Below, in pieces: positions 1-26,945 of a stretch of DNA of 43,002 bases. The position numbers and the translations under genes were made by a program. The stretch's first letter is position 1; each line of letters starts with the position of its first letter. Below the pieces are notes generated by a model that was not told the origin of the DNA, did not search any database, and saw only the letters and a list, made by a program, of their open reading frames with translations. Source of the DNA: a virus (Duplodnaviria; Heunggongvirae; Uroviricota; Caudoviricetes); the IMG/VR virus record IMGVR_UViG_2565956721_000005; one strand, written 5' to 3'.

Positions 1-147
1 TCAATAAATCCCATCATTGCGATCAACCTCATCCTTAACCATTGATGCGAGCAGTTCTTCCAGTTTCTGCGCTGATAGCTTTACCTGGTGATCTTCAGCA
101 TCTTCCCGGGCTATTGTGGTTCGCGCAGTGGCTGATTTTGCTGACAT
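1..147 (-). CDS. small hypothetical ORF (about 48 aa from ATG at 147); no convincing RBS
   Basis: Minus-strand ORF ending at window edge; ATG at 145-147; GC-normal; no recognisable family. Confidence 0.2.
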   Translation of the reverse strand: MSAKSATARTTIAREDAEDHQVKLSAQKLEELLASMVKDEVDRNDGIY

Positions 148-235
148 CACCACAGGGGGCAGACGGACCATTGAACCATGGCCTCCGGAACAAATAAGGG
201 CAAAAATAACAACCACTATCGAAAGCTCACAAACT

Positions 236-460
236 AACCGCAGCACGTTCCTGCATACGACGTGTCTGCGGCATAATCCCAATGATTACTCCCTGACAGG
301 ATTTGCAGGCCACTCAATATCAGGTGCAGTTGATGTATCAACACGATTCAACAATACCCGATATTTATTCCATGCCTCCAGCAACGATCTTTCTTCCTCC
401 GTTGCGATTTCCAGATCTACAGCATCCTGCAGTGGCGCAATATACTCACTGAATTCCTGG
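236..460. repeat. direct repeat copy 1 (tfa 3' end plus downstream hairpin), paralogous to 1286-1510
   Basis: Near-identical run ccgcagcacgttc...ggcataatcccaatgattactccctgacagg and following coding sequence seen at both loci. Confidence 0.8.
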
Positions 461-555
461 ATGTAGAACTGTGTGGTGACGGTCTTCCAGCCATTCGGCT
501 CCTGCTGTATCGAAGCATACCAGGCTATTTCAATATCGCTATGCTGCGGCAGCAT
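286..555 (-). pseudogene. tail fibre assembly protein paralog/remnant (C-terminal about 50 aa near-identical to Tfa at 1335-1919, divergent N-terminus)
   Basis: 89-aa ORF; C-terminus ...[51 protein letters not shown] matches the Tfa C-terminus. Confidence 0.55.
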
Positions 556-614
556 TTAACCCCTTGTAATTCATCGCCATAATTGATTTAATTCACAAAT
601 AAAACTATAACATA

Positions 615-1280
615 GTGAAACTAATGAAAAAAAACACAGATGATGGGGCTAAAATTTACACACCACTTACCCTAAAGCTTTATGACTGGTGGGTTTTGGG
701 AGTATCAAATCGGCTTGCATGGGGATGTCCTACAAAGGAACACCTTCTTCCACACTTTCTGGAACATTTAGGTAACAACCATCTGGATATTGGTGTTGGA
801 ACTGGGTTTTACCTTACTCACGTACCTGAGAGTAGTCTGATATCTTTAATGGATTTGAACGAAGCTAGCCTGAACGCGGCATCGACAAGGGCTGGGGAAT
901 CAAAAATTAAACATAAAATTAGCCATGATGTTTTTGATCCTTATCCCGCGGCGTTACATGGTCAATTTGATTCCATTTCCATGTTTTACCTTCTTCACTG
1001 CCTGCCTGGAAATATATCTACAAAAAGCTGTGTAATACGCAATGCGGCGCAGGCCTTAACTGACGATGGAACTCTATACGGAGCCACAATTCTTGGTGAC
1101 GGCGTTGTGCACAATAGCTTCGGTCAAAAACTGATGCGCATTTACAATCAGAAAGGCATCTTTTCAAACACAAAAGATTCCGAAGAAGGCTTAACACATA
1201 TACTCTCAGAGCATTTCGAGAATGTTAAAACCAAGGTTCAAGGTACTGTAGTAATGTTTTCCGCTTCAGGGAAAAAATAG
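615..1280 (+). CDS. class I SAM-dependent methyltransferase (moron inserted between tfa copies, opposite strand to tail genes)
   Basis: 221-aa ORF with motif I LDIGVGTGFY; AT-rich relative to flanks; flanked by direct repeats. Confidence 0.6.
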   Translation: MKLMKKNTDDGAKIYTPLTLKLYDWWVLGVSNRLAWGCPTKEHLLPHFLEHLGNNHLDIGVGTGFYLTHVPESSLISLMDLNEASLNAASTRAGESKIKHKISHDVFDPYPAALHGQFDSISMFYLLHCLPGNISTKSCVIRNAAQALTDDGTLYGATILGDGVVHNSFGQKLMRIYNQKGIFSNTKDSEEGLTHILSEHFENVKTKVQGTVVMFSASGKK

Positions 1281-1285
1281 CATCC

Positions 1286-1510
1286 AACCGCAGCACGTTC
1301 TTGCTTAAGACGTGCTGCGGCATAATCCCAATGATTACTCCCTGACAGGGTTCGTAGGCCACTCAATATCAGGTGCAGTTGATGTATCAACACGGTTCAG
1401 CAACACCCGATACTTTTTCCAGGCTTCCAGCAATGAGGTTTCTTCCTCCGTTGCAATTTCCAGATCTGCAGCATCCTGAAGCGGCGCAATATGCTCACTG
1501 GCTACCTGCA
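1286..1510. repeat. direct repeat copy 2 (tfa 3' end plus hairpin ccgcagcacgt...acgtgctgcgg)
   Basis: Sequence identity with 236-460; perfect inverted repeat at 1288-1320. Confidence 0.8.
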
Positions 1511-1919
1511 TCAGGTTGTTTTTTGTTTCTTCCGCCTCCCGGATCCGGAACATTTTTTCTGCTTCCGTATCCTTCACCCAGGCTGTGCCGTTCCACTTCT
1601 GAAACTCCCCTTCCGGCGATAACCAGGTAACATTTTCCGGTAACGGACCGAGTTCAGAAATAAATAACTCGTCCCCTGACGCTACGTCATAAACCGTTTT
1701 ACCCCGATGGTCTTCAACGAGATGCCACGATGCCTCATCACTGTTGAAAACAGCCACAAAGCCAGCAGGAATATCTGGTGGTGCAATATCGGTACTGTTT
1801 GCTGGCAGACCTGTATGAGGCGGAATATATGCGTCACCTTCACCAATAAATTCATTAGTGCCGGCCAGCAGATTATAAATTTTTATGGTCCGTGCTTGTT
1901 CACTCATTCTGAATGCCAT
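1335..1919 (-). CDS. tfa: tail fibre assembly protein Tfa
   Basis: 194 aa, [24 protein letters not shown]... near-identical to recalled lambda Tfa; ATG overlaps stf stop (TAATG). Confidence 0.9.
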
Positions 1920-4894
1920 TATGCAAGCCTCACAATATAGTTAAATGCGATGTTTTTGACGGTGTTTTCCGCGTTACCAGCAGCGTTAACGGTGATGGTG
2001 TGTCCATGTGAACCAATCGCAACGGAGTGCGTATGCGCACCAATACCTACAGTATGTGCATGTGCGCCAGAACTTGCTGCAGTACCAGACAGCGAGTGGG
2101 TATGAGCACCTGCTGACTGTGTCTGAATACGTTGATAATACGATCTACGGGAAGAAGTCCCCGGGCTTACTTGATACTGTGAATCCTGGACATAAGTGAA
2201 CCCACCGCCATCATAAAATGCTAACGCAGAACCGCCGCCTCCTGGCCAACGAATACCATTACCATGAGTATGATCACCGGCAGACCCCGTAGAGCCACTC
2301 AGACTGTGCGTATGCGCCCCGGTGTTATTCGTGGATTTGGTTCCGTAATCAAACGACGATGTGTTTTTCGTCCCCAAATCCGTACTGGATGCGCTGGCGC
2401 TGTGGGTGTGCGATTTAATGCCGTCCTGTTCCTGAGACAATACGGCACGACCACTGGCGGGTTTGCCCTTAATCGTCCAGCCACGCATATCAGGGATCAC
2501 GCCTGACGGATAAGCGGCTGCAAGTTTCGGGTATGCAGATTTGTCAAAAGTCTGCCCCTGCATCAGGGCATAGCCAGACGGAACGGTATCTGATGGCCAC
2601 GGGATTGGTGCGCCAGGCGGATAAAACTGCTCTGATGGCGTATAGAGTGAATAAACTGTACCGTCCGTTAACCCTTCCGGCTTATTAGCAGAATATGCTG
2701 GTGACGTATGAATCGTCACGCTGGCATTACTGGTATAATCCCATTGAATATTTACACCAGTCGCATAATTTCCGATTGCAACGTAAATATCGTAAGTATC
2801 ACCAGATGTATTGACCCAGGCAAAATTTGTAAACCCTGTCGATGTGCGCTGCCATAAAGCACCAGTAATCCCCTTCGGATTACCATTACCTGCACGCAAA
2901 ACAAGTTCAGATATACCTGCCTGTTGAGGTGACCCCACGTTAAATCCCGCACCACCAATCAACGTAATTGAAACAACAGAACTCGCCTGTGGCATGGTTA
3001 CCGTTGCTAATTTGAACCAACCAGCACCACCGCTGAATGACATTGTTGTTGAGTTAAGCGTACCAATATCTTTCGGCGTCAGTGTTATATCCGCTGAAAG
3101 CGCCTTACCATTCACCTTACGGGCAGAAGGTACCCGACCATTCGCATTATTATTAGCTGCTTTCACTGCTTTCGGTGTCGCGGCAAGCGTTTCAGATGCG
3201 CTGTTGGTTGCACTACTGAGCTGGACAATTCCTTTTTGTGCTGTCGTAGCGTCCTGAGCAGTATATTTCCCGTTAGCAAGGTCATAGGCTGCCTTTACCG
3301 ACTTTGGCGTTGCCGCCAGCATTTCAGATGTGCTGTTGGTCGCGTTGCTAAGCTGAACTATCCCTTTCTGTGCTGTCGTTGCATCCTGTGCGGTGTATTT
3401 CCCGTTAGCCAGCTCATACGCGGCCTTAACGGCTTTTGGCGTTGCCGCCAGTGACTCGGAAGTGCTGTTAGTCGCACTGCTGAGCTGTACTATCCCCTTT
3501 TTCGTCGTGCTCGCATCCTCAAGCGCCACGGCGGATGCAATATCCTCTGCCCGTTTTGCCGCTGTCTCAGCGCGCGTTGCCGCGGATTCCGCCGTACTTT
3601 TGCTCTGAGCTGCCGCCGTCGCACTGCCAGCTGCCTCTGTCGCCTTCGTGGATGCCGTCGTGGCGCTGCCCTTTGCTGCTGACGCCTGTCTGGTCGCCTC
3701 ATCTTTTGAAGCAGACGCAGATGATGCCGATGACGCCGCCGAACTGGCGGACGATGCGGCAGCCGTTTTTGAGGATTCTGCGCTGGTTTCCGACGCTTTC
3801 GCGTTCGTCTTGGATGTCTTCGCTGCGGAAGCAGACCTCGCTGCTGCGCTGGCCTGTACAGCGGCTTCGCCAGCCTTCGTTGTGGCTGTTGAAGCAGACG
3901 ATGCAGCACTTTCTGCCGATTTTCCGGCGGCGGTGGCACTGGCTGAGGCCTGCCCGGCACTTGTTGACGCGGCACTGGCAGATAATGCAGCCGCTGTTTT
4001 TGAGTCTGCCGCAGCTGAGGCGCTCTGTCCCGCTGCCGTTTCAGAAGACCTGGCGTTCGTCTCGGACGTTTTTGCCGCCTTCGCAGAATTTGCTGCCGCC
4101 GTTGCCGAGGAAGCTGCGCTGCTGGCGCTCGAGGCTGCGTTCGTTTCTGATGATTTTGCCGCCTCTTTTGAAGCCGACGCATCCCGTGCTGAAGTGGCTG
4201 CTTCTGACGCTTTCGTGGTCGCGGTGGATGCAGAAGTGGCTGCTGATTGTTGTGACGCTGCGGCATTCGTTTCTGACGTTTTCGCGGCACTGGCGCTGGT
4301 AGCTGCCGCGCTTTTTGATGACTCTGCAGCAGCAGCACTTTTTGCTGCTTCACGGGCCTTTGTCGATGCCGCTCCTGCGCTGGAAGACGCTGACTGAGCC
4401 GACGACGCGGCCTGTCCGGCTGACGTGCTGGCGGCACGTGCTGAGGCTGCAGCATCGGTTGCATGAGTTGCCGCCTCGCTGGCTGATGCACTGGCATCGC
4501 TGGCTGATTTTTTCGCGGCTGCCGTATTCTGTGCAACCGCGGAGGCGTTACGTGACACCTCTTCCACCATCTGCTCAAAGCGGCGCAGTGCCTCCGGTCG
4601 GACATCATCCTCCGTCATGGCACCGAGAAAATCATTCAGCGTACCTGGTCTGGAACCTTCATAGACGGTAATGGTCCCGGCATGTGAAGGCGGAAAACCT
4701 TCAACCAGCAGGGTGACGCTGTACTGACCATGCTCAACATCCATGCTGTAACGCCCGGCTTCATCCGGATTTTCAGAGGCCACCGTGTTCACCACCACCG
4801 TGCTGCTGGTCCGTCTGGCCTTCAGCACAATGGTGCAGTTCTGTACTGGTTTTCCTGTGCCATCTTTAAGCACGCCAGAAATTTTTACTGTCAT
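1919..4894 (-). CDS. stf: side tail fibre protein Stf
   Basis: 991 aa; N-terminus [20 protein letters not shown]..., Ala/Ser-rich central repeats and C-terminus ...[31 protein letters not shown] match recalled lambda Stf. Confidence 0.9.
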
Positions 4895-4896
4895 AC

Positions 4897-4928
4897 TTTT
4901 CCACCAATAAAAAAAGCCCGCAGCAGTG
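4897..4928 (-). terminator. intrinsic terminator downstream of lom
   Basis: Minus-strand hairpin CCCGTGGCGTCACTGCTGCGGG followed by T7. Confidence 0.6.
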
Positions 4929-5045
4929 ACGCCACGGGCTTCAGGACAGTGTAACTTTACGTTTCCTCAAACGCAGTTCACCCCATAAGGCGGATGAACC
5001 TGCGTATCATAACAATATTTACAGAAGATAAATCGGCGTCTGTTG

Positions 5046-5712: not shown

Positions 5713-7524
5713 TCAGCTGATACTGATGCCTGCGGTGGCTTTCTTCATCACCACAACCAGCAAATCGCTGATACTTGCTGTGGGATACCAGTTATTCACC
5801 AGCCATGCTGACACCGAAAACTCCAGCGTCATGTGGCCGCGACCAGCTGGCATATCAATAACACCACTGTAAATCAGCGTATTATCCAGCGCGGTACGGT
5901 TATAAATTTCAGCACCGTTTTTCCGTACTATCAGGCGGCATGACGAATAAATATCGTTATTCTCCCGCTCATGTTTAGCGCCGCTGAATGCCACCGCCGG
6001 AATAACAATCTGCCGGTCAAACGGCTGATCGTCATAAACCCTGACGGTGATGGTCCCTGATGGCCACCGTTCCGGTGCACGGGAGTCCCGGGGGAAAGCT
6101 TTGCCCACTGTTTTAACGAGATCGCCTTCAATCTGGTTGGCGGACAATTTTCCCAGAACCCGACAGTTCTCGTTAATCGTGACGTTGTTGAGCGTCCCGG
6201 AGTTCGCATTCACGTTACCGCTGATATCGGCATTTTTCGCCGTCAGCCGCCCGTCCGGTGTCAGGGAAAATGCCGGAGGATTACCGCCGCTGGTAATGGT
6301 CGGAGCCGTCAGGCGTTTCAGGAACACGTCGTTCATGAATATCTGATCGCCCTGACCAACAAACATCGGCTTTGTGTTGCCATTCGCAGGATTAATCATC
6401 GCAATCCGGTCAGCAGCCAGAAGCACCTGACTCTGCATACCTGCTGGCGTATTCTCAATACCGGCTCCGATACCCGCAATATAAAGGCGTCCGTCCTTCA
6501 TCTGCTGCAGTTTCACGGCCCACATGCTGTTCAGGTTATTATTTGTATCAACCTGAACTTTCTGTATCTGCTGGATTGCCGCACTCTGGTCTTCCAGTTT
6601 TTTATTGACGGTCTGCGTGATTTCATTGCTGACATTCGTAATGGACGTCCTGATTTCAGCCAGGTCCGGCGCAAGCTGACCGTTATCAATCTGCGTCCAC
6701 AACTCCTGGGCCAGATGTGTTTTCCCGATTTCTCCTTTGAAAAAATCCAGGTAACCTTCCGCATCATCGCTCGCCCGACCGACAGCCTCCACGAATGCCG
6801 ATTTGCCAACGGTGTTCACACTGCGAACGTAAAAATAATAATCATGGCCCGGTTTGATATTGATACTGGCGGCTATCCAGTACAGCGCCGTACCAAGATA
6901 GCGGGCTGTGGTTTCAACCTGCCTGATATCGGTAATCCGCTTTTCCGAGAACCAGAACTCAAACTGTACCGTCGGGTCATAAACAGCAAGATGCGGCGTG
7001 GCGGTTATCTGAAAATAGCCCGGCGTCAGCTCAATCCTCGACGGTGCTGCCGGTGCGGCAATCCGGAACGATACCGACGCCGGATCGCCCTGCTGCCCCC
7101 GGGCATTTACCGCCCGGACTGTCAGCCTGTAGTTCCCCAGCGCCAGTTGCGTGAAGCGGTATGTGGTTTCCGTCGTCCGGGCCGTGCTGACCAGTCGCTC
7201 ACTGCCGTCGTCCGCTGTTACGGTCAGACGGAGCAGGAAGCTCACGCCCTTCACCACCTTCGGTGTGTCCCATCGCGCCAGCACCTGATATTCCCCGCTG
7301 TCTGCAGTGACTTCGGCGGTCAGGTGCTGCACTGCTGGCGGCGTGACACCATTCACCGTGCCGCTCTGGTCACCGTCAAAGTGCGCCCCGTTATCCACGA
7401 TGGCTTCTTTCTCCGGTACATGCTGCACGGCGGTGATGGCATACGTGCCGTCATCGTTCTCACGGATACTCACGCAGCGGAACAGGCGCTGGCGCAGGTT
7501 TGTTAATGGAAAGGAAGCCGCCAA
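5713..7524 (-). pseudogene. J: host specificity protein J, C-terminal about 600 aa only (5' half deleted)
   Basis: Frame matches lambda J from ...[28 protein letters not shown]... to the C-terminus; no native start; fused to the 3' end of L. Confidence 0.85.
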
Positions 7525-8185
7525 AGTTGCCGACGTTATTGCGAAACTTACAGCCGCTCAGGCATTTGCTGCATTTATCCTTCGTGATATCGGACGTCGG
7601 CTGGTCATATTCATCCGCGACTGCCGGACCGTGATAACCGCACTCATCACCGCGATAGGTCCAGGTGCAGGTGTTGGCCAGCATGATACGCCCCGGAAAA
7701 ACAGCGCCATCCGTTTCCGTCGGCGTGGACAGTACAAAGGAGGCACTCACCGCGCTCAGTTCGCTGCACTGCTCGATGCGCCAGCGGCTGATCACCTCCT
7801 GCTCCGGATCGGCGTCTCTGTTTCCGTTGACGAAGTTCACCGCATCCAGAAAACGGGCGTAAACCTTACGCCGGACCACCGTTCCGCCGACCAGACTCTG
7901 CATATCTTCCACCATACCGGTGACCATGCCGTACAGGTTAGAGACTGCCAGCGTGGGCCGCGTACTGGTGCCTTTGCCATTCAGTTCAAAACCGCTCCCC
8001 TGAATGGGATACGCCTGATACTGCCTCCCCTGCCAGGTGACCGGCTCACCTTTTTCGTTCTGCTCATTACAGAAAAAATAACGTTCTCCACCGACCTCTG
8101 TCAGATCGATTTCCCAGAGCACCACGCTGGCCGACTGCTCCGCACGGGTGCATTCATTCAGTGTTTCCTGCCGGATATCCTGCAT
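7460..8185 (-). CDS. L: tail tip assembly protein L with altered C-terminus (reads 12 codons into J-derived DNA)
   Basis: [38 protein letters not shown]... matches lambda L up to ...GGFLSINK, then diverges at the deletion junction. Confidence 0.85.
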
Positions 8186-8514
8186 CAGTTCACCACCTGT
8201 TTAAACTCTGCGCTGAACCCAACACGCAACATACTGACCTGCGACGACCATTTTGCGCAGGTCACCTTTATCTGCCTGTAACCATAAGGCGGCGTCCACA
8301 GAAAGGCCTTCCAGCCCCCGTGCTCAGCCAGAAACGACTCCAGCGCCGTGGCCTCCTCACGGGAGACAGACAGCGTCACGCTGTACGTTTTCAGGTCAGC
8401 GTTCAGCCCGGCAGGCGCACGCTGGGAATAGCCATCACCAAAGCGCACCTCCCTGACGGAAGGAGCCGATGTCACATCCATCCCGGGTTTCACTTTCCAG
8501 CGGAAGGTTTTCAT
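8185..8514 (-). CDS. M: tail protein M
   Basis: 109 aa MKTFRWKVKPGMDV... matches lambda M; ATGA overlap with L. Confidence 0.9.
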   Translation of the reverse strand: MKTFRWKVKPGMDVTSAPSVREVRFGDGYSQRAPAGLNADLKTYSVTLSVSREEATALESFLAEHGGWKAFLWTPPYGYRQIKVTCAKWSSQVSMLRVGFSAEFKQVVN

Positions 8515-11084
8515 CGTCCACCTCCGGAGAACAGTCCACCATCACGCATCTGTGTCTGAATTTCATCACGGGCACCCTTGCGGGCCATGTCATACACCGC
8601 CTTCAGAGCAGCCGGACCTATCTGCCCGTTCGTGCCGTCGTTGTTAATCACCACATGGTTATTCTGCTCAAACGTCCCGGACGCCTGCGACCGGCTGTCA
8701 GCCAGACTGCCCGGTGTACCGACATAACCACCGGTGGCATAGCCGCGCATCAGCCGATAGAGATTCCCCACGCCAATCCGGCTGGTTGCCTCCTTTGTGA
8801 AGACAAATTCACCACGGTGAACAATCCCCGCTGGCTCATATTTGCCGCCGGTTCCCGTAAATCCTCCGGTTGCAAAATGGAATTTCGCCGCAGCGGCCTG
8901 AATGGCTGTACCGCCTGACGCGGATGCGCCGCCACCAACAGCCCCGCCAATGGCGCTGCCGATACTCCCGACAATCCCCACCATTGCCTGCTTAAGCAGA
9001 ATTTCTGTCATCATGGACAGCACGGAACGGGTGAATCCCCGCCAGTTCTGTTCGCTGCCGGTCAGCATCGCCGCCATATTCTGTGCAATACCGTCAAAGG
9101 TCTGCGTGGCCACACTTTTAACCTGCGAAAAACTGTCCGTCGCACTTTCCGCCCACTCTCCCCAGCCGGACTTCATCCCGGCCATCCAGCTTCCACGAAG
9201 CTGCTCCTCCGCAGACCAGGTGTTCTTCAGTGCCGATGTGGCCTTCGCCAGCGCAGCCGGATTATCACCGTACACCTCACGAAGGCGCTGCTCTTCCGAC
9301 TCCCGCTGCGCCTGACGGTCGGTGAGGCCGCGGGCTTTTGCGCTGATTGCCGCCTGCTTCGCGCTTTGCTGCTGTTCAAACCGCGCCGCCTGCTGTGCCA
9401 GCTCATTCAGCCGCTTCTGGTGTTCAATCTTGTCTCCCAGCTCAGCCAGCTGGCGTTTGTACTCCAGCGTCTCTTTCTCATGAGCCAGCAGGGATTTTTC
9501 CTGCTCAGATAACTGCCGTTTCGTGGCGGCCTCTTTCAGGACCACATACTGACTTTCCGCTTCCCATAAATCCCGGCGCTGCTGGCTGATTTTCTCATTC
9601 ACACCGCTGTGTTTTTCCAGCGTCCTGAGCTCGGTTTCAAGCGCCAGCAGGGCTGCATGCGCCCGGTCTTCCTGGCGCTCACCGGCAGACACCTTCACAC
9701 CTGACGGCTTTTTCAGCGTCGATTCATAATCCTTTTTTGCCGACGCCATCAGCGTGTTGTAATCCGCCTGCAGGATTTTTCCGTCTTTCAGGGCCTTATT
9801 CAGCTCTTTCTGACGGGCGGTATATTTATCCAGCGGCGTCTGCAGGCGCTCATACGCCTTCTGCGCCTCTCCGGTATACTTCAGCTGTGACGACTCACGC
9901 TCAGCCCTGTCCCTTGCCGCCAGTTCACCGGCTTTTTCCATATCCGACTGCAGCGTGGCCGCTGCCAGACCCAGACGGGCATTTTCCCGGTCATCCCATG
10001 CCCCCTGAAGGTTCGCACGAAAAGAGGAGGTCTTTCCCCGGCGCTGGCTCCGGCTCTGGTACCACTGCCATTTTTTATCCGCCTCATCAAATGCCTTCTG
10101 CGCACTGGCGAGCATATCCGCTGAGGATTCCGGACGACCGATATCCAGAATGGCATCCCACATCGATTTGAATGCCTTCCCTGTTTTATCCGCCCAGGTC
10201 TCCAGTGTTCCCATGTTTTCTTTCAGGCGACGGGTCTGCTCATCAAAGCCTTTCGTGGCGATATCGTTCGCCGCCTGCAATGCCCCGGCCTCGTCTCCGG
10301 AACGCTGCAGCTGTGCAACATACGCAATCTGCTCTGCCGTCACGTTACGGAACTGGCGCGCCATCGCCATCAGTCCCGACGTCGGGTCAGTGGTCAGCTT
10401 CCCGAAGGCTTCAGCGACTTTATCCACCTCCACACCGGATGCAGACGCAAAACGCGCGACACTCTGGTTGATGGCATCAAACTGTTCACCACCACGCACA
10501 CCGGCATTCACCAGGGCTGCCAGTGACTCTCTCGCCTGGTTAAACGTCAGCCCTGCTGCCTGCCCGGCTCTTGAGAGCGTCAGCATACGATCGGCAGTCA
10601 GTCCGGCCTGATTGCCGGAAAGGACCAGCGTTTTATTAAATTCTGAAAGCGTGGCGTCGCCCTGGTACCAGGCGTACGCCAGCGCACCTGTCGCCACCGC
10701 CAGCGAGGTGACCCCGACCATCGGCAGGGTGATCGCACCGGCAAGCCCCCTGAACATGGGGATCATCCCGCCGAAGGAGTCCTTCACCTGACCGCCCTGT
10801 TGCAGCAGGATCAACCAGGGATTCTGACCACCGGCAAGCTGCGTGGCGATATCCGTAAACTGTGCGGGCAGGGTTCGCATGGCCGCTTTATACTGCCCGA
10901 CGGAAATCCCGGCTTTTTGTGCAGCCAGCGCCTGGCGGCTCAGGCCCTGTTCAACAGCACTGGCGGTTTTTCTGGCGTCGGTATCCAGACCTGAAAAATG
11001 ACGCCTTACCCGGCTCATCTGCTCATCGAAACGGACAGCATCCAGACTCAGGTCAATAACAAGATCACCAACCGGCTGGGACAT
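8511..11084 (-). CDS. H: tail tape measure protein H
   Basis: 857 aa; N- and C-termini match recalled lambda H (MxxPVGDLVIDLSLDA... ...QMRDGGLFSGGGR). Confidence 0.9.
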   Translation of the reverse strand: MSQPVGDLVIDLSLDAVRFDEQMSRVRRHFSGLDTDARKTASAVEQGLSRQALAAQKAGISVGQYKAAMRTLPAQFTDIATQLAGGQNPWLILLQQGGQVKDSFGGMIPMFRGLAGAITLPMVGVTSLAVATGALAYAWYQGDATLSEFNKTLVLSGNQAGLTADRMLTLSRAGQAAGLTFNQARESLAALVNAGVRGGEQFDAINQSVARFASASGVEVDKVAEAFGKLTTDPTSGLMAMARQFRNVTAEQIAYVAQLQRSGDEAGALQAANDIATKGFDEQTRRLKENMGTLETWADKTGKAFKSMWDAILDIGRPESSADMLASAQKAFDEADKKWQWYQSRSQRRGKTSSFRANLQGAWDDRENARLGLAAATLQSDMEKAGELAARDRAERESSQLKYTGEAQKAYERLQTPLDKYTARQKELNKALKDGKILQADYNTLMASAKKDYESTLKKPSGVKVSAGERQEDRAHAALLALETELRTLEKHSGVNEKISQQRRDLWEAESQYVVLKEAATKRQLSEQEKSLLAHEKETLEYKRQLAELGDKIEHQKRLNELAQQAARFEQQQSAKQAAISAKARGLTDRQAQRESEEQRLREVYGDNPAALAKATSALKNTWSAEEQLRGSWMAGMKSGWGEWAESATDSFSQVKSVATQTFDGIAQNMAAMLTGSEQNWRGFTRSVLSMMTEILLKQAMVGIVGSIGSAIGGAVGGGASASGGTAIQAAAAKFHFATGGFTGTGGKYEPAGIVHRGEFVFTKEATSRIGVGNLYRLMRGYATGGYVGTPGSLADSRSQASGTFEQNNHVVINNDGTNGQIGPAALKAVYDMARKGARDEIQTQMRDGGLFSGGGR

Positions 11085-26695: not shown

Positions 26696-26772
26696 TGGCG
26701 CGTTGTACTGGATTCGAACCAGTGACCGATTGCTTAGAAGGCAATTGCTCTGTCCGGCTGAGCTAACAACGC
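26696..26772 (-). tRNA. argO: tRNA-Arg, anticodon UCU (reads AGA/AGG); argO-like
   Basis: Cloverleaf read by hand: acceptor GCGTTGT, anticodon loop CTTCTAA, T-arm ACTGGTTCGAATCCAGT, 3' GCCA. Confidence 0.85.
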
Positions 26773-26785
26773 AGGATACAGATAA

Positions 26786-26862
26786 TGGACCGCCTTCGGG
26801 GACCCGAACTCCGCGCAACCAGCTTCGAAGGCTGGCGCTCTTTCCTGATGAGCTAATGGCGG
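26786..26862 (-). tRNA. argN: tRNA-Arg-like, anticodon UCG; non-canonical T-loop (TTCGGGT) and one acceptor-stem mismatch
   Basis: Cloverleaf read by hand: anticodon stem CCAGC/GCTGG, loop CTTCGAA, D-loop with GG, 3' ...GGTCCA. Confidence 0.6.
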
Positions 26863-26869
26863 TATGTGA

Positions 26870-26945
26870 TGGTGGCCCTTGCTGGATTTGAACCAGCGAC
26901 CTGGCGATTATGAGTCGCTCGCTCTCACCACTGAGCTAAAGGGCC
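26870..26945 (-). tRNA. ileZ: tRNA-Ile2, anticodon CAU (lysidine type, reads AUA); ileZ/ileX-like
   Basis: GGCCCTTTAGCTCAGTGGTGAGAGC...CTCATAA...GGTTCAAATCCAGCAAGGGCCACCA; near-identical to recalled E. coli ileX. Confidence 0.85.

Follow-up and report, generated by a model that had tools for sequence, protein, structure and literature searches.

The locus at positions 236–1511 of the window—the whole 43,002-nucleotide stretch of viral DNA analysed here—raises the question of how a gene for a methyltransferase has come to lie between two direct copies of the end of a tail-fibre assembly gene, tfa, and what it may be doing there. With good probability, the locus is a moron cassette of the ybcY type, as carried by lambdoid prophages of E. 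coli, and it lies distally in the tail operon, adjoining the attachment site. The arrangement is not new, being already catalogued as tfaD–ybcY–tfaX of the K-12 prophage DLP12 (for the names ybcY and tfaX, see PMC3946193 and bioRxiv 10.1101/594564), and the cassette is an ordinary known moron of low novelty, with nothing in the locus that alters current understanding. It represents a clean and very common, textbook-style case of cargo trading among lambdoid phages, the conserved 3′ end of tfa together with its terminator hairpin forming a portable homology arm.

Anatomy of the locus and its repeats

The element carrying the cassette is an intact lambdoid prophage at the ompW site, the cassette being located at the far end of the prophage, and the RefSeq-annotated locus of UTI89 is identical to that of the window. 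Followed in the direction of tail transcription, the order is stf, tfa, a hairpin (hp2), the methyltransferase gene—convergent with tfa—a 68-bp spacer with divergent promoters, a chimeric ORF of 89 residues, another hairpin (hp1) and the remnant of a tail-fibre gene. The side tail fibre gene stf (1919–4894, minus strand, 991 aa), present in the ORF list and annotated in RefSeq as 'prophage tail fiber N-terminal domain-containing protein', is the upstream partner of tfa (1335–1919, minus strand, 194 aa), the last gene of the late tail operon. The latter gene, to which the downstream repeat had been ascribed by the first-pass annotation, is indeed intact, as seen from the matches to Pfam Caudo_TAP (E = 1.3e-44) and phrog_105 (E = 1e-100) as well as from RefSeq. 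The methyltransferase ORF, the orthologue of ybcY, lies on the plus strand, i.e. opposite to both tail genes, as had been stated. At the other end of the locus, a DUF4376-type pseudogene (1–189, minus strand; RefSeq annotation of UTI89), which runs off the start of the window, is a remnant of a tail-fibre module; its 48-aa translation matches phrog_7703 and phrog_1141 ('tail fiber protein'), and it constitutes the final phage DNA ahead of the ompW attachment site.

Direct repeats of about 225 bp, each composed of a C-terminal coding segment of tfa and a hairpin, had been described as bracketing the methyltransferase gene, and on formal comparison they do align. The repeat search yielded two pairs with a one-base offset between them, 266–462 with 1315–1511 (197 nt, 89%) and 236–264 with 1286–1314 (90%), which are joined in the MAFFT alignment into a single repeat of ~226 bp, 236–462 (R1) versus 1286–1511 (R2), with about 89–90% identity and one 1-nt indel. 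The longest perfect blocks cover 35 nt (266–300 and 1315–1349) and 39 nt (307–345 and 1356–1394). For the equivalent repeat pair of UTI89, BLASTN gave 216 nt with 89.8% identity at E = 1e-75, which excludes a chance origin of the repeats. Read on the minus strand, each copy consists of the last ~58 codons of a tfa-type gene—in R2 those of the intact tfa—and of a GC-rich hairpin, hp1 at 238–271 and hp2 at 1288–1320, both of them real according to the fold z-scores on the tfa-sense strand (−4.0 and −6.95, respectively). Both copies are also matched by the Rfam entry IS009; a known RNA within the repeats was rejected, the match corresponding to the sense strand of the tfa coding sequence, and it is treated here as a by-product of tfa pseudogenes formerly called intergenic.

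The ORF that contains most of the upstream copy (286–555, minus strand), equivalent to tfaX, had been taken for an 89-aa tfa-like remnant, a description that holds for residues ~38–89, but not for residues 1–37. Pfam Caudo_TAP covers only residues 31–86 (profile positions 75–130), whereas residues 3–37 are matched by phrog_3893 and residues 2–37 correspond in BLASTP to a 79-aa ORF of a Klebsiella phage (E = 4e-12); phrog_2341 matches the full length. Judged from these sequence matches, the ORF is a chimera of an unrelated small phage gene of the phrog_3893 type (residues 1–37) and the C-terminus of tfa (residues ~38–89) rather than a simple 5′-truncated tfa. It might be argued that this ORF forms, together with the methyltransferase, a functional two-gene unit, for example with a mini-Tfa that disturbs the tail-fibre assembly of competitor phages, given that the ORF is intact both here and in phage records and that phrog_2341 is a PHROG family of its own. 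Such a unit is, however, extremely improbable: RefSeq calls the ORF a pseudogene in UTI89, its K-12 counterpart has an internal stop, in DLP12, O157 and ev243 its 3′ end is truncated at 309 or 331, with other sequence in its place, and its ATG is overlapped by the −10 hexamer of the published promoter, which would therefore not take in the start codon.

The spacer between the two divergent reading frames (556–623) carries, towards the methyltransferase, TTGATT (583–588) and TATAAC (606–611) at a distance of 17 nt, and, on the other strand, ATGGCG and TTAAAT at a distance of 15 nt. The same hexamers are listed for the ybcY/tfaX spacer in PMC3946193, where they are marked as H-NS bound; those of the window are identical to the in vitro RpoD promoter reported for K-12 ybcY, the K-12 gene itself being frameshifted. 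By analogy with K-12, where it is bound by H-NS, the cargo would have its own sigma-70 promoter and would presumably be expressed from it in this strain. It should be noted that the listed −10 leaves a leader of only about 6 nt ahead of the ATG at 624, and that a promoter scan pointed to a weaker alternative at 556–583, the scan scores being no better than those of shuffles. The stop codon of the methyltransferase is followed by a strong hairpin, which has no U-tract on that strand in the window and has one in the O157 variant. The GC content over 501–1300 amounts to 0.375–0.45, versus 0.47–0.55 in the tfa/stf flank.

Filled and empty alleles and the exchange of the cassette

The methyltransferase segment is present in 3836 of the 5426 complete E. 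coli genomes (~70%), with up to four copies per genome, and in 14 isolated phages; the filled allele, defined as at least 80% of the 2-kb query, was found in 1113 genomes. In at least 19 complete genomes, the same ompW site is occupied by an empty allele, in which the junction reads DUF4376 remnant–hairpin–tfa without the methyltransferase, the number being that of the records covering 100% of the junction probe in one piece. The methyltransferase is therefore not a conserved core gene of this phage group; as a moron, it is present or absent at the same position in close relatives, and its base composition deviates, too. Apart from the ompW-site prophage, the cassette was found in no fewer than four phage backgrounds: DLP12 at argU, an O157 prophage that holds additional cargo, the phage ev243, whose tail fibre is a different one, and a Nissle remnant, so that filled, empty, decayed and extended versions are all present among sequenced genomes. 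In ev243 (window 331–1455), the cassette keeps both tfa ends though there is no intact lambda-type tfa. Concerning the 'yciGFE' genes of the O157 prophage, a chromosomal rearrangement was rejected, as they share just 74% identity with their chromosomal counterparts; they thus represent extra cargo and not an inversion junction.

Six of the seven aligned empty alleles have hp1 followed by GGATTT(G/A)CAGG and then by R2-like or third-type sequence. The R1 of the window has hp1 followed by GGATTTGCAGG and, from about 346, by tfaX-type sequence, and in EFF60 hp1 leads into GGGTTCGTAGG, the sequence linked with hp2. In both the window and EFF60, native sequence gives way to cassette sequence within 266–345 of the repeat, and none of the switch points of the empty and filled alleles lies outside the repeat, an observation in favour of the cassette being gained and lost through homologous recombination within the conserved tfa 3′ end. 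The empty alleles, the position of the switch points and the recurrence of the cassette thus speak for the original suggestion that the cargo was inserted by recombination between tail-fibre assembly cassettes.

In such an exchange, the two tfa 3′ ends would act as homology arms. A gain would involve one crossover in the left arm—mapped to the identical 39-nt block at 307–345—and another one in or beyond the right arm, by which a donor segment consisting of a part of tfaX, the promoter, the methyltransferase and hp2 would have entered a phage reading 'tfa–hp1–remnant'. A donor in which R1 is complete was not found; the copies of the DLP12 type break off at 309 or 331. A loss would proceed by recombination between the direct repeats, removing a unit of 1049 bp. 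The likely catalysts would be phage Rad52-type recombinases or RecA; in experiments, lambda recombines with the stf-tfa of the defective prophages Rac and Qin, and Red-beta tolerates 12% divergence and a homology of about 30 bp (PMC3945230). As to the individual events, we infer their direction, gain or loss. The EFF60 chimera, the Tfa protein accession of which is that of the yecD-site prophage, could have arisen by crossing over with a tfa of the hp2 type in which the methyltransferase had never been present, and the patchy mosaic structure of other empty alleles could reflect standing polymorphism instead of separate events. Measurements of repeat-mediated moron gain and loss could use the locus as a convenient natural system.

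The fit between the repeats and the insert boundaries is exact, and one repeat together with the insert makes up the clean unit of 1049 bp, which would also be compatible with an illegitimate insertion of the methyltransferase into or after tfa that duplicated a target of about 226 bp, the copies having diverged afterwards. A duplication in situ is, however, very unlikely, since the copies differ by about 11%, compared with at most 1% among whole-locus alleles, and since the types of sequence they are made of occur independently: hp1 in the empty alleles of the ompW site, hp2/R2 at the yecD site after a tfa without methyltransferase, and the right part of R1 in DLP12, O157 and ev243; moreover, the segment 463–555 beside R1 comes from an unrelated gene. 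The left part of R1, from hp1 to about 306, corresponds to the tfa end that is native to the phage lineage at the ompW site, and from about 346 onwards R1 belongs to the tfaX lineage, being identical to the O157 copy and near-identical to that of K-12. The hp2 type is linked to the 3′ end of the methyltransferase in K-12, ev243 and Ayreon, with a variant form in O157, and hp2 with R2 is native after tfa in the yecD-site prophage lacking the methyltransferase, ~300 further genomes giving the same 81%-coverage match. On this comparison of sequences, the two copies represent native tfa ends from two distinct phage lineages and not the products of a duplication in place. At least as improbable is a vestige of an alternative or invertible host-range module of tail fibres (of the Mu, P1, e14 or Rac type), with fibre and chaperone leftovers and the methyltransferase as an incidental passenger. 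There are, admittedly, three fragments of tail-fibre modules in a row downstream of stf, and such modules are shuffled among phages (PMC3945230, discussion), but the repeats are direct, not inverted, and the methyltransferase and tfaX move together as a unit across many backgrounds. In addition, a search allowing up to 3 mismatches detected no cix/gix-like crossover site, and no invertase is annotated anywhere in the prophage; on the basis of the direct repeats and these two results, an invertible segment of the Gin/Cin/Pin type was rejected.

Cargo exchange by homologous recombination between tfa ends can be compared with several known systems. The DLP12 locus of K-12 (tfaD′–ybcY′–tfaX′), located between appY/ompT and nohD, is orthologous, with window positions 309–1773 aligning at 96.6%, and it shares with the window the gene order, the divergent promoter hexamers and the hp2 hairpin. 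All three of its genes are, however, decayed—the methyltransferase being frameshifted, both tfa pieces truncated and R1 devoid of its last codons and hairpin—whereas the window has an intact methyltransferase, an intact tfa and a complete R1, in an element that is a full-length prophage at ompW instead of a remnant at the argU site. The SopE cassette of Salmonella, found in the P2-like SopE-phi and in Gifsy-type lambdoid prophages, resembles the window in its single cargo, its constant flanks and its sporadic occurrence in unrelated prophages, and its transfer is thought to take place by homologous recombination (PMC7380047). In both cases, the same cargo with constant flanks is found in different backbones, and in the cassette studied here the crossovers lie inside the flanks. 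SopE is a secreted type III effector of known function, whereas the cargo of the window is a putative cytoplasmic methyltransferase flanked by two tfa 3′ ends as direct repeats. With regard to P2-like phages, the consulted part of PMC3573123 describes a moron site after the tail-fibre genes, with the cargo in the opposite orientation; at its position 2 (neaT, CFT073 prophage b0847), the cargo is placed right after the tail-fibre genes and opposed to the tail operon, as in the window. The same part presents the morons of P2-like and lambdoid phages as variable among related phages and unneeded for lytic growth, features in which the cargo of the window would resemble them. The neaT gene belongs to another phage family, the window being lambda-like, and encodes another class of enzyme; flanking direct repeats permitting precise gain and loss are found in the window and are not described for neaT in that part of the paper.

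The methyltransferase and its possible role

A well-folded conserved methyltransferase is encoded in most E. coli and, as a stand-alone gene, in many other Enterobacterales, its biochemical role being the main question. The ORF extends over 615–1280 and contains LDIGVGTGFY. The length of 221 aa given in the first-pass annotation is counted from the GTG at 615 and should probably be revised, the ATG at 624 (624–1280, 218 aa) being the likelier start because the homologues have mostly 218 residues and the PHROG 2132 alignment begins at residue 4. The assignment to class I is, by contrast, well founded: LDIGVGTG is invariant across 31 homologues, the Pfam cut-offs are exceeded by both Methyltransf_12 (37.5 bits versus 30) and Methyltransf_23 (28.7 versus 27), and motif I is accompanied by a seven-strand beta-sheet flanked by helices. 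The family carries, moreover, its own invariant N-terminal motif, YDWWVL...N..AW.C, and the gene exhibits a signal of purifying selection.

In line with the original description, the homology and structure searches do not assign a specific substrate to the enzyme. Sequence and profile searches against the PDB gave generic methyltransferase matches only, and no family cut-off of NCBIfam was reached (PmtA, NF045882, 17.7 bits versus 390; RquA, 16.8 versus 175). The structural neighbours are overwhelmingly small-molecule enzymes. The phosphatidylethanolamine N-methyltransferase from Rubellimicrobium (8ys9), the juvenile-hormone acid methyltransferase (7ec0) and UbiG (4kdr) share with the window enzyme the Rossmann-like seven-strand fold and the GxGxG SAM motif, as well as a similar size (about 210–290 aa) and an N-terminal helical cap, at an identity of just 12–21%. 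It can thus be stated with confidence that the enzyme has the fold of a small-molecule or lipid-modifying class I SAM methyltransferase; it is taken to be cytoplasmic. Its being an envelope-modifying enzyme, i.e. an N-methyltransferase of phosphatidylethanolamine or another lipid head group, is highly doubtful; PmtA is both the best Foldseek neighbour and the best sub-threshold match in NCBIfam, but the structural likeness to it is no better than that to dozens of other small-molecule methyltransferases. If it were true, a cargo present in ~70% of E. coli genomes would alter membrane chemistry, with lysogenic conversion or superinfection exclusion as the context. A DNA methyltransferase was rejected, the sequence having no (D/N/S)PP(Y/F/W) or PC motif (the nearest being DPYP); DNA-methylase matches were found neither in Pfam or NCBIfam nor among the top structural neighbours listed, and the prophage has a separate annotated DNA methyltransferase gene.

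Phage growth would not require the methyltransferase, the retention of which is most likely explained by a conditional advantage for the lysogen. The enzyme might alternatively serve the phage itself, by modifying a macromolecule of the host or the phage (RNA, protein or an envelope component) against defence or superinfection, as the gene is kept intact in plaque-forming isolated phages, is under purifying selection and adjoins host-range genes. This is unlikely in view of its presumed transcription from a host-type promoter in opposition to the late operon, its absence from otherwise near-identical prophages, the prevalence of small-molecule enzymes among its structural neighbours, and the distant homologues from Salmonella, Yersinia, Aeromonas, Enterobacter and Erwinia, which are stand-alone chromosomal genes outside prophages. 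PADLOC, too, detected only a match of the generic methyltransferase domain to mad2 (13.9 bits, E = 0.004), and a role as a defence system was rejected on this negative result. The K-12 ybcY mutant had no effect in the one assay found, and literature searches on tfaX/tfaD and on methyltransferase morons beside tail fibre assembly genes yielded nothing relevant.

The gene neighbourhoods of the distant homologues from the five genera have no common neighbour. Hydrolase genes occur near the methyltransferase in ev243/O157, Enterobacter, Erwinia and Yersinia. A conserved esterase/hydrolase partner was rejected, and since the proteins from ev243 and Erwinia are unrelated (BLASTP E = 0.87), the nearby hydrolases are regarded as a coincidence.

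Direct repeats and gene layout at the tail-fibre end

At positions 1-5000 of the window, a lambdoid tail operon on the minus strand comes to its distal end with stf (1919-4894; 991 aa) and tfa (1335-1919; 194 aa), followed by a methyltransferase ORF on the plus strand (615-1280) and an 89-aa ORF again on the minus strand (286-555). The first-pass annotation had described the methyltransferase as lying opposite the tail genes between direct repeats of the tfa 3' end, a layout confirmed by repeat finder, alignment and BLASTN. The repeat finder gave two pairs, 266-462/1315-1511 (89%) and 236-264/1286-1314 (90%), one base out of register with each other, which formal alignment unites as one repeat of 226/227 nt containing one indel of 1 nt; the longest perfect blocks between the upstream copy (R1, 236-462) and the downstream one (R2, 1286-1511) are 35 nt (266-300) and 39 nt (307-345). 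The equivalent pair in UTI89 covers 216 nt (89.8%, E = 1e-75 in BLASTN). Each copy starts with a GC-rich hairpin—hp1 at 238-271 in R1 and hp2 at 1288-1320 in R2—adjoined by the last ~58 codons of a tfa reading frame. This composition, also part of the original description, is borne out by folding on the tfa-sense strand, which for both hairpins is far better than for shuffled sequences (z = -4.0 and -6.95, respectively), and the downstream copy does belong to an intact tfa (Pfam Caudo_TAP, E = 1.3e-44).

Concerning the 89-aa ORF, regarded previously as a tfa-like remnant, only its tfa part stands. The Pfam tfa profile covers just residues 31-86, while residues 2-37 are similar (53% identity, E = 4e-12) to the N-terminal part of an ORF of 79 aa from Klebsiella phage Kp4882-3, a full-length phrog_3893 member. 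On these two grounds, the ORF is not a simple truncated tfa; its first ~37 codons come from an unrelated small gene of phage origin and are fused to a tfa C-terminus. This points to an original cargo of two divergent genes—the small gene plus the methyltransferase—whose far side, as we infer, acquired a tfa end later. The methyltransferase ORF was correctly located, its length of 221 aa being less well founded: since nearly all homologues have 218 aa and the PHROG 2132 alignment begins at residue 4, the ATG at 624 is the likely start.

Both repeat copies are also matched on the minus strand (1378-1576 and 329-532) by the Rfam family RF02111 'IS009', classed as an RNA gene, with 223.8 bits (gathering score 117) and 112.5 bits. 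Since the matched strand is the one in which tfa is encoded, IS009 probably represents pieces of tfa pseudogenes and not a separate sRNA. A 45-aa ORF at 1225-1362 (minus strand; labelled by RefSeq 'hypothetical protein' for UTI89 and 'nucleocapsid protein' for K-12) shares sequence, in a different frame, with the 3' ends of both the methyltransferase gene and tfa as well as with the hairpin, and looks like a spurious call. The Ala/Ser-rich part of stf contains three tandem 132-nt units (3138-3533); the UTI89 allele is exactly 132 nt longer (3108 vs 2976 nt), and the unit copy number therefore differs among strains.

Relation to the K-12 locus and polymorphism at ompW

For the first 2 kb of the window, 1113 complete E. 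coli genomes give matches covering 80% or more of the length, with 99.5-99.8% identity in UTI89, APEC O1, S88 and other B2 strains. The UTI89 element is a full-length lambdoid prophage in ompW, adjoining yciE-yciF-yciG and the trp operon, with the methyltransferase at its very end, separated from the ompW fragment by nothing but the other tfa piece and a pseudogene of DUF4376 type. The methyltransferase segment (556-1285) is present in 3836 of the 5426 complete genomes, in up to four copies per genome, as well as in 14 deposited phage genomes, e.g. ev243, 2G7b and the PhiR series. The match in K-12 MG1655, 96.6% over window 309-1773, is the DLP12 prophage remnant between appY/ompT and nohD, in which a frameshifted methyltransferase gene (ybcY) stands between two truncated tfa pieces, tfaX and tfaD. 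The window locus is thus orthologous to one long annotated in K-12, real but of an ordinary, well-understood kind, that of morons located where the tail-fibre genes of a lambdoid prophage end and exchanged via the conserved ends of tfa. The additions made here are modest: the explicit empty-site alleles, the breakpoints mapped to the repeat, the chimeric 89-aa ORF and the fold-level exclusion of a DNA methylase. For K-12, a divergent pair of H-NS-bound RpoD promoters is listed between ybcY and tfaX, the equivalent of the 89-aa ORF (PMC3946193); the ybcY hexamers given there, TTGATT-17-TATAAC, are unchanged at window 583-588/606-611. In UTI89, CFT073 and 536, ybcY is located 272 bp from ompT (bioRxiv 10.1101/594564).

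The query for the empty allele, i.e. the ompW-site junction without the methyltransferase, was window 1-300 joined to 1350-2000, a 1049-bp unit being absent. Four genomes carry this join contiguously (98.1-99.5%), and a shorter junction probe, unable to bridge the filled allele, was covered by 100% in one piece in 19 records. All seven empty loci inspected occupy the same ompW site in the order yciE, ompW fragment, DUF4376 remnant, hairpin, tfa and stf; the methyltransferase is therefore dispensable cargo. The comparison with prophages lacking the insert, proposed in the first-pass annotation, thus revealed a genuine insertion polymorphism, the lack of which had been named there as refuting the proposal.

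The allele switch points were read from an alignment of both window copies, the seven empty alleles, the K-12, O157 and ev243 copies, and the tfa of a yecD-site prophage. The hairpin hp1 with GGATTT(G/A)CAGG, present in six of the seven empty alleles, is the native tfa end of the ompW-site phage lineage. The hairpin hp2 with GGGTTCGTAGG goes with the methyltransferase 3' end in K-12 and ev243 and, in phage Ayreon, with the remnant of the hp2 side; the hp2 type is also the ordinary end of a methyltransferase-free tfa in SF-088 (neighbours DinI-like and yecD), whose type of match, with 81% coverage, is shared by ~300 other genomes. R1 in the window is of the native hp1 type up to ~306 and from ~346 of the tfaX lineage, identical to the O157 copy, which places one crossover within the identical 39 nt of 307-345. 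The second lies in or beyond R2, donor and recipient being too alike there for finer placement. In the empty-allele genome EFF60, hp1 is joined to the hp2-linked motif with the junction in the 35-nt block 266-300, exactly the product expected from recombination between R1 and R2. An alternative origin is an exchange with a methyltransferase-free tfa, because the EFF60 Tfa protein has the accession of that from the yecD-site prophage. Whichever origin applies, all the inferred breakpoints fall within the conserved tfa 3' segment. With these and the empty alleles, the proposal of cargo insertion by recombination between tail-fibre assembly cassettes holds, refined as above.

As a precedent, infecting lambda recombines with the defective Rac/Qin stf-tfa regions at ~2e-6, depending on Red-beta or RecA; a divergence of 12% lowers the yield only ~100-fold and ~30 bp of homology is enough (PMC3945230). 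R1 and R2, diverged by 11% and sharing their 35- and 39-nt perfect blocks, are within that range. The other end of the prophage carries a gene for an 824-aa 'exonuclease'.

The cassette in other backgrounds

Phage ev243 contains window 331-1455 with both tfa pieces as remnants, adjoining tail-fibre genes of a different type and then a hydrolase, ompT and integrase. In O157:H7 F6667, the similarity ends at window 1320, directly after the hairpin, and a 2.8-kb block (5767-8560 of the F6667 segment) of yciG/yciF/yciE/Mn-catalase paralogues is positioned between the cassette hairpin and tfa; being only ~74% identical to the UTI89 chromosomal yciGFE, it is extra prophage cargo. Nissle 1917 retains only 526-1451 and 1556-1826, adjoining ompT. 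Ayreon has kept the promoter/tfaX side (window 469-585) and the hairpin/tfa side (1245-1466) and lost 586-1244, an internal methyltransferase deletion with a 4-nt overlap at the joint (3471-3474 of the Ayreon segment). Cargo is thus built up, swapped and eroded at this site. The arrangement is paralleled by the SopE cassette of Salmonella, which is described as moving between prophages by homologous recombination (PMC7380047), and by the moron site of P2-like phages, which directly follows the tail-fibre genes and holds cargo oriented the opposite way (PMC3573123).

In F6667, the hairpin is followed on the methyltransferase strand by TTTAATTTTT, making a better terminator than that of the window. 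The ompT gene shares the cargo region with the methyltransferase cassette in ev243 (887-3511 of the ev243 segment) and DLP12 (2242-4194 of the K-12 segment). Its companion there is appY in K-12, and an alpha/beta hydrolase in ev243 and O157; the surroundings of chromosomal ompT are therefore the b-region of this phage family.

The encoded methyltransferase

The AlphaFold model (31 homologues; mean pLDDT 91.2) exhibits a seven-strand class I fold, and sequence and profile searches of the PDB gave only juvenile-hormone acid methyltransferase and UbiG-type matches, with E = 4e-6 or weaker; all NCBIfam matches were far below the cut-off. The family counts 1611 detectable relatives (E <= 0.001) from Enterobacterales, Aeromonas, Shewanella and Pasteurellaceae, with the invariant N-terminal motif YDWWVL...N..AW.C in common. 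Beyond the prophages of E. coli, the gene stands alone in the chromosome, with no conserved neighbour among the non-prophage loci inspected. The pN/pS between the E. coli copies is 0.06-0.29, on few substitutions, and the GC content is 0.39-0.45 vs ~0.5 in the flanks. PADLOC yielded no meaningful match for the methyltransferase. The sole phenotype statement found in the literature is negative—the K-12 ybcY mutant was like wild type in an Hha-toxicity assay—and that K-12 ybcY is itself a pseudogene. We consider the protein a small-molecule or lipid methyltransferase, with predicted expression in the lysogen from its own H-NS-controlled promoter.

A DNA methylase is excluded at the fold level, with no DNA-methylase motif or family match found in the sequence or in Pfam. 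A separate DNA methyltransferase gene is present elsewhere in the prophage. The prophage also carries three tRNA genes at window 26696-26945 (minus strand), Arg-tct, Arg-tcg and one with a CAT anticodon, assigned to Met by ARAGORN and to Ile by RefSeq; in UTI89, all three adjoin a DNA methyltransferase gene, downstream of the antiterminator.
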